A stretch of DNA of 64,000 nucleotides from Escherichia phage a48, in sequence record OQ067375.1, one strand, 5' to 3'. Numbering within the stretch: the stretch's first letter is position 1; the number at the start of each line of letters is the position of its first letter. The notes beneath the pieces are model-generated. The model saw only the letters and a program-made list of their open reading frames with translations. It was not told the origin of the DNA and made no database searches. Shown in pieces: positions 33,230 through 42,288 of the stretch. The position numbers were made by a program, and so were the translations under genes.

Positions 33230-33703
33230 TTATTTGAATGATTTGACGTACTGAATAGAGCCTTTGCTATTCACGAAAGCGATTTTACCATTTTTATTAT
33301 ACATGGTAGCAGTACGCTGATAACCATAAGTTTGTTTACCAGATTGATAACCAACTAATGCAAAATTATCTTCGCCCATTTTATTCTGTTTGGCGCGGAT
33401 ACGTTCATGACCGTGTGCCATAAGAACCTTAGCGTCGCCAGTTGCAATGGATCTACGAGTTTTTTCATCTTCAACCGTATTAACAAAGTCGTCAAATGAA
33501 TCAAATTTAGCATGAGATTTATTATACAGTTTTCCATCTACTGCATAATTATATCCCTGTACATCCATCTCAACTTCTGTACCATCATCCAATACAGCAG
33601 TGATTTTTTGACCTTTTTTAAATTTCAAAAGATCAGTAAAAGATTCAGCGATAATTTGAGAATTAATAGCTGCTTCAGTAATAAATTCTTGATATGTTTT
33701 CAT
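33230..33703 (-). CDS. internal-protein-like capsid-targeted protein
   Basis: 157 aa; N-terminus MKTYQEFITEAA matches the T4 internal-protein capsid targeting sequence. Confidence 0.6.
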   Translation of the reverse strand: MKTYQEFITEAAINSQIIAESFTDLLKFKKGQKITAVLDDGTEVEMDVQGYNYAVDGKLYNKSHAKFDSFDDFVNTVEDEKTRRSIATGDAKVLMAHGHERIRAKQNKMGEDNFALVGYQSGKQTYGYQRTATMYNKNGKIAFVNSKGSIQYVKSFK

Positions 33704-33712
33704 GTGTTTCCT

Positions 33713-34129
33713 TTAAATGTAAATATTTTTGCCGTAGTATTTATACCAGTGTGGCTTCATTAAAATTTTTTCATCGAGTCGTTGTTGACTCAATTTAATA
33801 GCCGATTTGCATGGGTTATAATCATTTTTCCATTCTGCTGGAATATCGCTGATGTCAGGAACTTCAGTATCTTTTATACTAAACCCGCGTTTTAAGCATT
33901 CCGTTATAATGTCTGATTGACGCTTTCGCAAAAATTCTAACTTATCATAAAAGAACGTAACATGACCAGAACCTAAAATAAACTCGGAAGATATTTTAAA
34001 ATCTTTAACCCGCTTACCATTTGCCACATGTTTACGAACTATACCAAAAACACGTGGCAATTCACGGTATTCTGCGATTAAATGTTGATCAACAAGTTCA
34101 GATACTAAAGTCAAATTAATACGAGTCAT
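33713..34129 (-). CDS. denV: endonuclease V (pyrimidine dimer DNA glycosylase)
   Basis: 138 aa; sequence closely matches T4 endonuclease V as recalled. Confidence 0.92.
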
Positions 34130-34154
34130 TTTATCCCTCCAAGTAATTGTGAAT

Positions 34155-34184
34155 ATACTATCACAATTCTAGGAGAAAGTAAAC
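34155..34184 (-). promoter_or_regulatory. early sigma70-type promoter upstream of denV
   Basis: -35 GTTTACT, -10 TAGTAT; between e and denV. Confidence 0.55.
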
Positions 34185-34188
34185 AACT

Positions 34189-34683
34189 TTATAGATTTTT
34201 ATACGCGTCCCAAGTGCCAGTTCTAAACGTTGCAATAACTCGTTTTGCGCGGTTAGGTGTTTGATTATACCATCTACTTTTAGCTAAGTTAACTGCTGCT
34301 TCATCCCAACGCTTTTGTTGGAGCATGCGTAAAGAATTAGTAAATCCTGCTACGCCGGTTTCCCCCATTTGGAAGACCATGTTAATCAATGCACAGCGGC
34401 GAACAGCATCAAGAGAATCATAAACTGGTTTTAATTTAGCATTTCTCAGAATTCCGCGAACAGCAGCATCAACATCCTGATTAAAGAGTTTTTCGGCCTC
34501 ATCTTTTGTAATTACACCATTACAATTACGCCCAATAGCTTTATCTAATTCAGATTTAGCAACGCTTAGTGATGGACTTTTAGTAAGCAAATGACCAATG
34601 CCAATAGTGTAATAACCTTCTGTGTCTTTATAGATTTTAAGTCTAAGACCTTCATCTATACGTAACATTTCAAATATATTCAT
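34189..34683 (-). CDS. e: lysozyme (endolysin) gp e
   Basis: 164 aa; near-identical to T4 lysozyme with a few substitutions (for example SLSVAK, VIATF). Confidence 0.95.
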
Positions 34684-34719
34684 AATACCTCCTAAGTATT
34701 TATAGAAGGTATTTATAAA

Positions 34720-35175
34720 TTAAAAGAGGCTGTTCATTATTCGGTAAAGTGAAGGGCCCATCACATATTGCCACTGAGTACGAGGAATAAGAGCAAAAGC
34801 ATCCATCTCTGGAATCATAACGCCATCTTTATTTTCAAAATAAGACTCGCAATGGCAATTTCTAAACATCTCATGCTCTACTGGAATCGTATAATAAAAT
34901 AACTGTAAGTCTTTATTACTAGAATATTTAAATACACCTAGGTCTTCTAGAAGGTCTGGATTATAATTGCTAAAACCAGTCTCTTCTAAGCATTCTCTTC
35001 GTGCTGCATCTAGTGCGCTTAAATCAGAATTTTCTACGCGGCCCTTTGGAATATCCCAACGATGTGCCATCATTCCAGGCTTACGAGAACCAGTAACCCG
35101 ACCCATAAATAAATCTTTATCTTCTGTCATAAAGATAATACCAGCTGATAATGTTTTCATTTTAATTTCCTGCAT
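34720..35175 (-). CDS. nudE: Nudix hydrolase NudE (e.1)
   Basis: 151 aa; Nudix box GRVENSDLSALDAARRECLEETGF. Confidence 0.82.
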   Translation of the reverse strand: MQEIKMKTLSAGIIFMTEDKDLFMGRVTGSRKPGMMAHRWDIPKGRVENSDLSALDAARRECLEETGFSNYNPDLLEDLGVFKYSSNKDLQLFYYTIPVEHEMFRNCHCESYFENKDGVMIPEMDAFALIPRTQWQYVMGPSLYRIMNSLF

Positions 35176-35645
35176 TCAGTGATAAAGTTATTTAAATTTT
35201 GAGCATATTTCTTTTCATCAAAAATCTTTTGTTGTCTGCGTAACCGCCATGGCATTTCAATGAACACACACCATATTCCGGATAATATTGCTGCAGTAAA
35301 AATATTAACAAATATAGTACAAAGAGACCAATCTCCTATTCTGTCCATTGGATTTTTTCCAAAGAAGTAAAATACGAATGATGACGCAGGAAGACTAATG
35401 ATATACCACAGAAGCATATTCTTATCCGTAAACCATTCAGCGTTCGTTAACTTAGCACGACCGTTTTGAATACAAACGAATTTATCATCTGTTACAGTAG
35501 ATGGCTTAACTGCTTGATATCCCATTCTAAACTCCCTAATTAATCGTTTCTTTGTATCTTCAGAACAGCCACTCCAATCAACTCTATCAACTGAAATGCC
35601 ATCGTCCCCATCATCTAAATCATACCAGCGAGTTTTTAAAATCAT
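35157..35645 (-). CDS. membrane protein (e.x)
   Basis: 162 aa with two hydrophobic helices. Confidence 0.5.
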   Translation of the reverse strand: MILKTRWYDLDDGDDGISVDRVDWSGCSEDTKKRLIREFRMGYQAVKPSTVTDDKFVCIQNGRAKLTNAEWFTDKNMLLWYIISLPASSFVFYFFGKNPMDRIGDWSLCTIFVNIFTAAILSGIWCVFIEMPWRLRRQQKIFDEKKYAQNLNNFITECRKLK

Positions 35646-36004
35646 CTGATTTTCCTACAATCACTCACAAACTCTTTCATTGATTCATTTTCAATATAAG
35701 ACATGTAGCTATTATATTCTTTTAATTGTATTTTGTAATCTTTTTTTCTTTGCCAATTTATTTTAAAATTATCATAATGAAAATATAACATGGTACCAAA
35801 GAATGAAAACAATGAAATAATTTTAGTATAACAAAGCTCACTCCAAACTTCTGTTATATTTACTGTGCCGTCGATGTTTAAAATAAGACAGTCAATTAAC
35901 AATCCAAAAAGACTACCCGCAAGAGCTGCAGCCAACGCCACAGCAAAAATTAAAAATGACTCAGGAAACGAATATTTGACTTTATTTAGTTTTGGCTTTT
36001 GCAT
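35642..36004 (-). CDS. membrane protein (e.x)
   Basis: 120 aa with hydrophobic segments. Confidence 0.5.
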   Translation of the reverse strand: MQKPKLNKVKYSFPESFLIFAVALAAALAGSLFGLLIDCLILNIDGTVNITEVWSELCYTKIISLFSFFGTMLYFHYDNFKINWQRKKDYKIQLKEYNSYMSYIENESMKEFVSDCRKIR

Positions 36005-41076: not shown

Positions 41077-41078
41077 TA

Positions 41079-41477
41079 TCAGCCTTCATCAACAATAGTG
41101 TGAGTATTAGCATTTACGATTTGCCACCAATCAAAGCGATTAGAATCCATCGGTTTGTTTTCATTTTCTTTGATAATGTCACGGAGTTCATCTTCAGAGA
41201 ATGCTTTAGCGATTAAATCGGTATACCCACCACGTGGATAATAATTATCACCTGCAAACAAAAGGAAATTTACCTTCCCGGAAGGAACATACGCTTCCTT
41301 AGGATACTTGTTTCCTGCGTGGTCAACCACTTCAATATAACGGTAAGGAATATCGGTTCTTTCAACCCATTGCCATGCCGCTGCAGGGGAATCGAAAGCA
41401 TCTACACCTAAACGATTATCTTCATCTTTAGACGGATTATTTTCGTAATCCGCATATACATAATATTCAACGTTCAT
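41079..41477 (-). CDS. hypothetical protein
   Basis: 132 aa acidic ORF. Confidence 0.5.
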   Translation of the reverse strand: MNVEYYVYADYENNPSKDEDNRLGVDAFDSPAAAWQWVERTDIPYRYIEVVDHAGNKYPKEAYVPSGKVNFLLFAGDNYYPRGGYTDLIAKAFSEDELRDIIKENENKPMDSNRFDWWQIVNANTHTIVDEG

Positions 41478-41662
41478 TATTCACCTTTAGAAATTTTATC
41501 CATAACAATAGCAATTAAACCAATTAAAAATGCTACTACAAGTGAAAACACATTTTCTGCTGTAGTCAATAATCCACATATAAATCCAACAAACATTGAA
41601 AAACTAAAAGCGGAAGCAGAAATTGCAATAGCAACATTTCGAATTAATTCACAACGTTTCAT
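41477..41662 (-). CDS. small membrane protein
   Basis: 61 aa, mostly hydrophobic; own early-type promoter upstream. Confidence 0.45.
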   Translation of the reverse strand: MKRCELIRNVAIAISASAFSFSMFVGFICGLLTTAENVFSLVVAFLIGLIAIVMDKISKGE

Positions 41663-41690
41663 TTTATTCTCCTCAGTAGTAGATAGGGTA

Positions 41691-41720
41691 ATAGTATCAC
41701 TACCCTATCTAAAAGTAAAC
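41691..41720 (-). promoter_or_regulatory. early sigma70-type promoter, -10 inside an inverted repeat
   Basis: GTTTACT ... GTGATACTATTA; flanking inverted repeat AGATAGGGTA/TACCCTATCT; upstream of the 41477-41662 gene. Confidence 0.55.
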
Positions 41721-41954
41721 TTATTTTTTACGAAAAATTGATTTATTTTCTGCTGCCCATTTTTCAATAACTGCAGCAGGACCAGTAACAACAATTTTAT
41801 CACCGTAATCTTCTGCGGCGAGTTGACCGAAATTATCTAATGCATCACGAAGAACTCCATGAGGCATTTCACCCATTTTATCTTTCTTGCCAGTGTAAAT
41901 AAACTCAACTTTTACATCAGCAGTTTCAGCAATAAATTCTTGGTAAGTTTTCAT
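41721..41954 (-). CDS. internal-protein-like capsid-targeted protein
   Basis: 77 aa from MKTYQEFIAETAD...; capsid-targeting-sequence N-terminus; own promoter upstream. Confidence 0.55.
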   Translation of the reverse strand: MKTYQEFIAETADVKVEFIYTGKKDKMGEMPHGVLRDALDNFGQLAAEDYGDKIVVTGPAAVIEKWAAENKSIFRKK

Positions 41955-41988
41955 TTTGATTTCCATTTGGTTTTGTTTTGATAGGGTA

Positions 41989-42018
41989 ATAGTATCACAA
42001 CTAAAACCCTATGTAAAC
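41989..42018 (-). promoter_or_regulatory. early sigma70-type promoter, -10 inside an inverted repeat
   Basis: GTTTACA ... GTGATACTATTA; flanked by GATAGGGT/ACCCTAT; upstream of the 41721-41954 gene. Confidence 0.55.
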
Positions 42019-42030
42019 AACTTTGTGAAA

Positions 42031-42288
42031 TTATTTTAAATCTTCTAATCGTTTCTTCATCTTAGAACCATTTTTAGCAATTTCTCCTGCATCGGAGCAT
42101 AATGCTAAAAGTGCTTTAACTTTAGTTTGGTCTCCTTTAAAAGATGAAGGATCGACCGCAGCAGCAAGTTCTTTAATACGAGAGAAAAGACGCTCAGCTT
42201 CAGCTAAAGCCATTCCAAGCTTTACTTCCATACCGTGGGAAGATTCAGTGATAGTAGTTTTTGTAGCAAACTCTTTGAAAGTTTTCAT
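42031..42288 (-). CDS. internal-protein-like small protein
   Basis: 85 aa; N-terminus MKTFKEFATK resembles the capsid targeting sequence; own promoter upstream. Confidence 0.5.
   Translation of the reverse strand: MKTFKEFATKTTITESSHGMEVKLGMALAEAERLFSRIKELAAAVDPSSFKGDQTKVKALLALCSDAGEIAKNGSKMKKRLEDLK

Follow-up and report, generated by a model that had tools for sequence, protein, structure and literature searches.

Does a T4-like phage keep the genes for its capsid-targeted, injected proteins only at the loci recognised for them, or elsewhere in its genome as well? The question is raised by a stretch of 64,000 nucleotides from Escherichia phage a48 (sequence record OQ067375.1), the whole of which is referred to here as the window, and in which four open reading frames (ORFs) begin with the capsid targeting sequence (CTS) of the T4 internal proteins (Ips) or with a close variant of it. 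It is quite probable that all four encode head-internal proteins that are loaded and processed by way of this leader. Three of them are, to judge from their sequences, the long-known Ip4, Ip5 and Ip6, about which nothing new was learned, and the fourth, designated ORF2, would be an unrecognised member of the same class. ORF2 is not recognised as an internal protein in the annotations or the literature that could be reached, and because that literature speaks of two Ip loci and its searchable texts contain no ORF2-type leader strings, ORF2 at a third site may be the only new element. The analysis itself supplies the identities between sequences, the conservation of leaders, the promoters, the repeats and the synteny, and published work supplies CTS function, processing by gp21 and the targets of Ip1, Ip2, Ip3 and Ip6; that ORF2 is packaged, and that Ip4, Ip5 and ORF2 act against restriction, is inferred.

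A search of all six frames of the window with the pattern MK[TS][YFW]xxF returned exactly four ORFs, all on the minus strand, with the N-termini MKTYQEFITEAA (33230-33703, 157 residues), MKTYAQFLMTEA (38384-38845, 153 residues; ORF2), MKTYQEFIAETA (41721-41954, 77 residues) and MKTFKEFATK (42031-42288, 85 residues). These are the same four that an earlier note, made from the letters of the window, had picked out as CTS genes, and its view that the leaders are genuine is borne out by the names that three of the genes already carry. A start that matches the pattern is expected, on a rough estimate from composition, about once per 10^5-10^6 ORFs, so that four of them lie far beyond chance. All four ORFs have Tyr or Phe as residue 4 and Phe as residue 7, and in the three named genes a canonical cleavage motif follows, as ITE at residues 8-10 and IAE at 18-20 of Ip4, IAE at 8-10 of Ip6 and ITE at 13-15 of Ip5 (ITE at 17-19 in T4 IPI). 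When the window proteins and T4 IPI, IPII and IPIII were compared all against all by BLAST, similarity was confined to the leader and the mature parts were unrelated. A scoring matrix trained on seven known Ip leaders separates Ip4, Ip5 and Ip6 cleanly. If no more is asked than an aromatic fourth residue and Phe7, 10 of 606 Met-starts qualify, and the resemblance of the gene 57B product (Acb1; MMEFKDF), which has this spacing without a cleavage motif, is therefore probably due to chance; the ORF at 26925-27311 (MKFSDFSQ) was ruled out as a CTS gene on account of its match to Pfam DUF5856 and its lack of a hydrophobic-x-Glu motif.

The identities of the three named genes are straightforward. 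Ip4 (33230-33703; leader MKTYQEFITE/A, the slash marking here and below the predicted cut, with a second possible cut, IAE/S, after residue 20) would yield a mature protein of approximately 15.5-16.5 kDa with an isoelectric point (pI) of 9.1-9.3. It matches Pfam DUF7412 (E 5.7e-96) and phrog_3155, 'internal virion protein', shares 100% identity with genes of phages JK1 and PP01 that carry the annotation Ip4 or ipIV, and belongs to a family in whose alignment the leader and Glu20 are conserved. A T4-type late promoter box, TATAAATA, lies at 33738-33745, within the 3' end of denV and 42 nucleotides upstream of where Ip4 starts, and only nine such boxes occur on the minus strand of the 64 kb. Ip6 (41721-41954; phrog_8111) carries the leader MKTYQEFIAE/T, which is the CTS of T4 IPII and IPIII, and is 100% identical to genes annotated ip6; its longest ORF begins at 41966, 12 nucleotides further upstream, and the start annotated in related phages is that at 41954. 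The predicted mature Ip6 has 67 residues and, with a pI of 6.5, is not basic. Ip5 (42031-42288) has a long leader of the IPI type, MKTFKEFATKTTITE/S, and a predicted mature part of 70 residues with a pI of 9.2, and it is 100% identical to Ip5 of phage RB15. For all three, the matching PHROG family is labelled as one of internal virion proteins or internal head proteins.

In the mechanism proposed for all four, the short CTS at the N-terminus of each protein would tether it, through the aromatic residue at position 4 and Phe7, to the scaffolding core of a prohead under assembly, and the prohead protease gp21 would then cut after the Glu of the hydrophobic-x-Glu motif. The small, mostly basic mature protein would stay in the head with the DNA and, because it is injected along with that DNA, would be on hand before any phage gene is expressed, to block a host nuclease that attacks modified phage DNA. 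The genes for the protease and the scaffolding core, 21 and 22, lie outside the window and are, as far as is known, carried by all the complete Tequatrovirus genomes that it matches. In the case of IPIII, the first 10 residues are enough to load foreign proteins into T4 heads (PMC9026906), and mutagenesis assigned residues 4 and 7 to targeting and residues 8 and 10 to processing by gp21 (Mullaney and Black 1996, summarised in PMC9026906).

The likeness to the T4 system extends from protein to DNA. The first 10 residues of Ip6 are those of IPII and IPIII, the leader of Ip5 is long, as in IPI, and also ends in ITE, the genes stand at the two places in the genome where T4 has its own, and the mature products are likewise small and mostly basic. 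The DNA of ribosome binding sites and promoters differs little or not at all: the 75 nucleotides upstream of Ip5 are identical to the DNA upstream of T4 ipI, and Ip4 agrees with T4 ipII and ipIII over its ribosome binding site and first 24 nucleotides, even at synonymous positions. T4 differs in that the mature parts are unrelated to those of the window, which has no ipI, ipII or ipIII and in which denV stands between e and the Ip gene. The nearer counterparts are the Ip4, Ip5 and Ip6 proteins of T2, RB15, RB32, PST and many other T-even phages, since the window proteins are 100% identical to database entries so named; PST and Sf21 share the Ip5 and Ip6 pair, and T2, Sf21 and fD1 share Ip4; only the combination with denV and ORF2 varies from phage to phage.

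ORF2 is a different case, in that its claim to membership has to be made from its leader, its family and its surroundings. The protein, identical to WBF83099.1 of Escherichia phage a48, begins with the leader MKTYAQFLMTE/A and is predicted to mature to 142 residues (15.7 kDa, pI 9.36), within the pI range of 9.0-9.65 for the T4 internal proteins. It has no match in Pfam, and its PHROG family, phrog_2280, is labelled 'unknown function'; tblastn finds homologues in 511 phage records, and the names among the 40 matches listed of these 511 are all 'hypothetical protein', 'Phage protein' or lacking, as the names of its protein clusters are all 'hypothetical' or 'uncharacterized'. The leaders of its relatives include MKSYAQFLNEAVLNE/A, MKTYNEFLNESVLTE/A and MKSYAEFLTE/Q, and in eight aligned Tequatrovirus-type sequences M1, K2, Y4, F7 and E11 are invariant while leader length varies. 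More distant relatives begin with MKFKEFLIE/A (Klebsiella Jiaodavirus), MLKFNEFLAE/G (an unassigned metagenomic contig) and MLEYSEFLKELFCE/A (Yersinia phage fHe-Yen9-01). These three shift or replace the invariant residues by one position and keep the aromatic-x-x-Phe spacing and the Glu, and canonical cleavage motifs (LNE, LTE, LIE, LAE) occur among the relatives. A comparison of the ORF2 and Ip4 family profiles by hhalign aligned only the first 14 columns (E 5.5e-5), over which the consensus leaders are nearly the same.

Structure prediction, which the earlier note had proposed as a check, gave no functional clue through fold searches with Ip4 and ORF2. The ORF2 model (predicted local distance difference test, pLDDT, 73) is disordered over residues 1-11 and folds from residue 14 into a three-helix N-terminal domain, a linker of Pro, Ala and Lys, and a helical hairpin. 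The family is very small: out of 1.84 billion proteins an exhaustive profile search recovered no more than 10 representatives, those that could be assigned all coming from T4-like phages, and ORF2 thus appears to have no distant relatives of known function; sequence searches against solved structures and NCBIfam gave no meaningful match. In the relatives from Klebsiella phage KP1079 (L003, 2995-3528) and fHe-Yen9-01 (P0027) the leader and the three-helix domain are kept and the C-terminal half differs, which suggests that the family is modular, with the N-terminal domain retained and the C-terminal domain exchanged. Two chimeric database proteins were also seen, P0009, which joins a tRNA.3-like N-terminus to the C-terminus of ORF2, and P0010, in which the N-terminal domain of ORF2 is followed by a NudE-like C-terminus; these are either genuine recombinants formed by deletion or errors of assembly.

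The surroundings of ORF2 have the form of a cassette. A late-promoter-like box, TATAAATT (38882-38889, minus strand, matching at 7 of 8 positions), lies 44 nucleotides upstream of the gene, right after the T-run of a terminator, and a perfect TATAAATA stands 34-48 nucleotides upstream in 8 of the 11 ORF2-family loci compared, the window being one of the 11; the perfect cases, in which the box again comes just after a terminator, include a relative that is 99% identical and the Klebsiella Jiaodavirus. A terminator scan placed a hairpin of approximately 35 nucleotides, AGCCCCGACCAAAAGGTCGGGGCT followed by a T-run, at 38887-38921 (minus strand), downstream of an rnaC-like region, where it forms the left boundary of the cassette, and a second copy, AGCCCCAACCTTTCGGCTGGGGCT with its T-run, at 38344-38378 (minus strand) forms the right one. 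The approximately 508 bp enclosed (38379-38886) are absent in T4, T2 and PST, and the single hairpin of each of these phages aligns by BLAST to both copies in the window. The duplicated hairpins, at which gain and loss probably take place, are the counterpart, built on a terminator, of the promoter and stem-loop (PeSL) repeats described below, and in the proposed model a unit of late promoter, gene and terminator would come and go by recombination between them. The recognised Ip loci number two (PMC12373910), one between e and vs.8 and the other between 57B and tRNA.4. Ip4, Ip5 and Ip6 lie within them, and ORF2 lies outside both, between the rnaC-like region and e.8. Location in a recognised Ip locus is a habit of the family and not a requirement of the mechanism.

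What the injected proteins might do is in large part a matter of precedent. The view of the internal proteins as anti-restriction proteins dates from 1994 and gained strength in 2025. By 2010 the T-even internal proteins were described as a diverse set of defence proteins with only the CTS in common (Rao and Black 2010, PMC3012670). Ip1, Ip2 and Ip3 each inhibit a distinct GmrSD-type enzyme without cross-protection, and the remaining proteins of the Ip loci are predicted to hit modification-dependent nucleases too (Silas et al. 2025, PMC12373910), while IPIII without its CTS still rescues infection when it is expressed in the host (PMC9391042). The suggestion of the earlier note that the cargo genes supply injected anti-restriction factors is in this sense right, and it is also the published view (PMC3012670, PMC12373910 and the HIDEN-SEQ preprint), new in nothing save ORF2.

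The most direct bearing on the window comes from phage Bas37, in which bas37_0260, at the ipI locus and with a CTS leader, is reported to be an inhibitor of McrBC (HIDEN-SEQ preprint, bioRxiv 10.1101/2025.11.20.689424). This gene has the position, the 234 bp and the spacers of Ip6 in the window, and the Bas37 locus as a whole, with genes of 186, 234, 258 and 459 bp separated by spacers of 58, 76 and 73 nucleotides, is laid out exactly as here. Four deletion primers for bas37_0260 match the window with 0 mismatches, at 41553, 41738, 41949 and 42183, and one of them encodes the Ip6 C-terminus WAAENKS. From gene sizes, spacers and primers it is concluded that bas37_0260 is Ip6, the interior of the gene being presumed identical, and because of this equivalence Ip6 of the window most likely blocks McrBC as well, a function shown in Bas37.

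A comparable case from outside the T4 lineage is provided by the Dar proteins of phage P1 (DarA, DarB and Hdf), which target type I restriction, are of unrelated lineage and much larger, and have no MKTYQEF-type leader. What they have in common with the internal proteins is that they are loaded into the head at assembly, delivered with the DNA, and disarm restriction before gene expression (PMC12810830).

Several observations weigh against the proposal that all four ORFs are injected head proteins with an anti-restriction role. The promoters within 120 nucleotides of Ip5 and Ip6 are all of the early PeSL type, a feature shared by T4 ipI, which is packaged nonetheless. The ORF2 allele of the window has MTE at residues 9-11, so that the P3 position is Met, which is non-canonical with respect to Leu/Ile-x-Glu, and its promoter box is TATAAATT and not TATAAATA. 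The leader matrix gives ORF2 11.3 bits against 9.5 for the next candidate, and because this score is barely above background the case for ORF2 rests on the family and not on the single sequence. Liquid chromatography-tandem mass spectrometry of purified fD1 virions flagged both g129 (Ip4) and g140 (the ORF2 homologue) as particle-associated; the same proteome flags 137 of 277 phage proteins, DenV, lysozyme and NudE included, and the detection of g140 is accordingly low in specificity. In Bas37, bas37_0244, by gene size and position the probable ORF2 homologue, is non-essential and showed no fitness change in one comparison with a clinical isolate. No targets of Ip4, Ip5 or ORF2 were found in the literature, and the fold searches with Ip4 and ORF2, as already noted, were silent on function.

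Of the other explanations, the one that survives best leaves the injection of Ip4, Ip5 and ORF2 in place and holds that they are anti-defence proteins directed at something other than type IV restriction, such as other first-response systems or host nucleases. It has in its favour that transposon insertions in bas37_0261 were depleted (log2 fold change, log2FC, -2.09) in one clinical-isolate comparison, in the same table in which the ORF2 homologue shows no such effect, and that the folds of Ip4 and ORF2 point to no particular target; bas37_0261 (258 bp) is the Ip5 counterpart by position and length, and the deletion primer prDH0649 inside it matches the window exactly. All four Ips of known target, however, hit modification-dependent nucleases, and Silas et al. 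predict type IV targets for the remaining proteins of the Ip loci, so that a different class of target for these three is judged unlikely, if still a serious contender.

Somewhat less probable again is the explanation that ORF2 is not packaged at all and is a cytoplasmic late protein whose CTS-like N-terminus came from an ip gene through recombination or arose by chance. To the non-canonical P3 residue, the promoter box with one mismatch, the marginal matrix score and the unspecific fD1 proteome, this explanation can add that ORF2 lies outside the two recognised loci and that no annotation names it an internal protein. It has difficulty with the survival of the leader signature in relatives from other genera (Jiaodavirus, the metagenomic contig and fHe-Yen9-01) whose mature parts have diverged strongly, since a functionless relic would not keep Tyr/Phe4, Phe7 and hydrophobic-x-Glu through several indels. 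The late promoter is conserved in the ORF2 family, the leader is disordered and the mature part basic, and the leader consensus comes close to that of the Ip4 family. Packaging of ORF2 in the head, the reading favoured here, is on these sequence features moderately likely, and a role of the protein against host defence, argued by analogy with the Ips of known target, is a more tentative proposal. The fullest form of the proposal is evenly balanced: that the ORF2 family would be capsid-targeted and injected, that its late-promoter cassette between duplicated hairpins, downstream of the tRNA and small-RNA cluster, would constitute a third Ip locus conserved from Tequatrovirus to Jiaodavirus and fHe-Yen9-01, and that its two-domain basic cargo would inhibit some first-response defence.

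It is improbable, lastly, that the Ips serve mainly a physical purpose, neutralising DNA charge or aiding packaging and ejection, with a diversity of cargo that reflects neutral drift and no arms race, for although the mature proteins are small and mostly basic, approximately 1000 Ip molecules lie among the DNA in T4 with lysines on the DNA phosphates (PMC3012670), and bas37_0260, bas37_0261 and bas37_0244 all score as non-essential in the laboratory, four Ips act on specific restriction enzymes and none of Ip1, Ip2 and Ip3 protects in place of another, IPIII acts from the host without its CTS, Ip6 is not basic, and unrelated folds are swapped cassette-wise at the same sites, which fits diversifying selection.

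The exchange of cassettes has left traces at the locus of Ip5 and Ip6 as well. Three PeSL-like direct repeats of 71 nucleotides, each an early promoter with a stem-loop in which the -10 box is contained, bracket the two genes on the minus strand: copy 1 (41678-41748) downstream of Ip6, copy 2 (41976-42046; promoter TTTACA-17-TACTAT with TG at 42017-41989) between Ip5 and Ip6, and copy 3 (42307-42377; promoter at 42348-42320) upstream of Ip5. Copy 2 fits the PeSL consensus of PST and T4, TTTACW-N17-TAYWAT, whose authors tied PeSL to the shuffling of IP loci (PMC4122927), and because three copies bracket Ip6 and Ip5, each ip gene would be a separately exchangeable cassette. A paralogue approximately 48% identical to Ip5 is found beside lysozyme e in 228 records (for example PV287714.1, 63859-64110), and the Ip5 cargo family thus occurs in both classical Ip loci.

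The wider gene order is that of a familiar phage. Complete Tequatrovirus genomes match the window at 93-96.5% identity, more than 1000 Tequatrovirus and related records match the 10 kb around the finding (top identity 96.5%), and the source is, on these matches, a Tequatrovirus, a T4-like phage. The minus strand follows the T4 order: gene 1, 57A, 57B, the ip locus, tRNA.4 to tRNA.2, the tRNA cluster, e.8 to e.2, nudE, e, the second ip locus and the vs genes. As the earlier note had it, denV (33713-34129, minus strand; Pfam Pyr_excise) adjoins lysozyme e (34189-34683, minus strand; Pfam Phage_lysozyme), both as annotated in Sf21, and the first CTS gene, Ip4, lies downstream of denV. Its further remark that the arrangement is unlike T4 holds insofar as T4 has e, ipIII, ipII, denV and vs.8 where the window has e, denV and Ip4; the arrangement is not unusual, for Sf21 and fD1 share it. 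T2 has e and Ip4 without denV, and Ip5-like and Ip7 genes at the other locus, PST has e, ipIII and ipIV, with ipV and ipVI at the other, and Bas37 has e and denV with no Ip at that site. By this comparison the layout of the window is one of several common T-even mosaics.

Several neighbours of the CTS genes are of interest in their own right. Homologues of rnaC and rnaD, approximately 89% identical to those of T4, lie just upstream of the ORF2 cassette at approximately 38971-39235 and match no Rfam family, and Rfam returned only tRNAs over 30000-45000. The tRNA genes number nine here, with Tyr and a CAT-anticodon tRNA among them, and eight in T4, and a GIY-YIG (segB-like) homing endonuclease gene (39315-40088) lies between tRNA-Arg and tRNA-Tyr, its longest ORF overlapping tRNA-Tyr (40027-40113). 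Gene 57B (42362-42820), which adjoins the ip locus, matches Pfam Acb1, an anti-CBASS nuclease (CBASS being a system of antiphage signalling based on cyclic oligonucleotides; E 2.7e-60). The e.6 homologue (36997-37590) has the position and length of Bas37 bas37_0240 (594 bp), which reached a log2FC of -6.49 (q = 0) in one HIDEN-SEQ clinical-isolate comparison and for which a knockout plasmid was built, the main text of the preprint being silent on the gene; the e.6 homologue may be a further anti-defence gene within the interval of the finding. Between e.8 and the probable ORF2 homologue of Bas37 lies bas37_0243 (564 bp, 141028-141591 in the Bas37 map), scored 'Essential' with 1 of 48 TA sites hit; at the corresponding place the window shows no ORF of this size.

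Recent work has presented internal proteins of T-even phages as specific inhibitors of modification-dependent restriction enzymes, Ip1, Ip2 and Ip3 of GmrSD variants and the Ip6 counterpart of McrBC; they help to set host range, and Ip4 and Ip5 are obvious candidates for assays of that kind. ORF2 is a candidate injected protein in approximately 500 sequenced phages, the BASEL phage Bas42 included, and Bas37, for which transposon libraries already exist, probably carries it too, as gene size and position indicate. If ORF2 is indeed packaged and injected, the search for injected anti-defence proteins would widen beyond the two classical loci, and scanning for the leader would be a better way than position to find the internal proteins of these phages.

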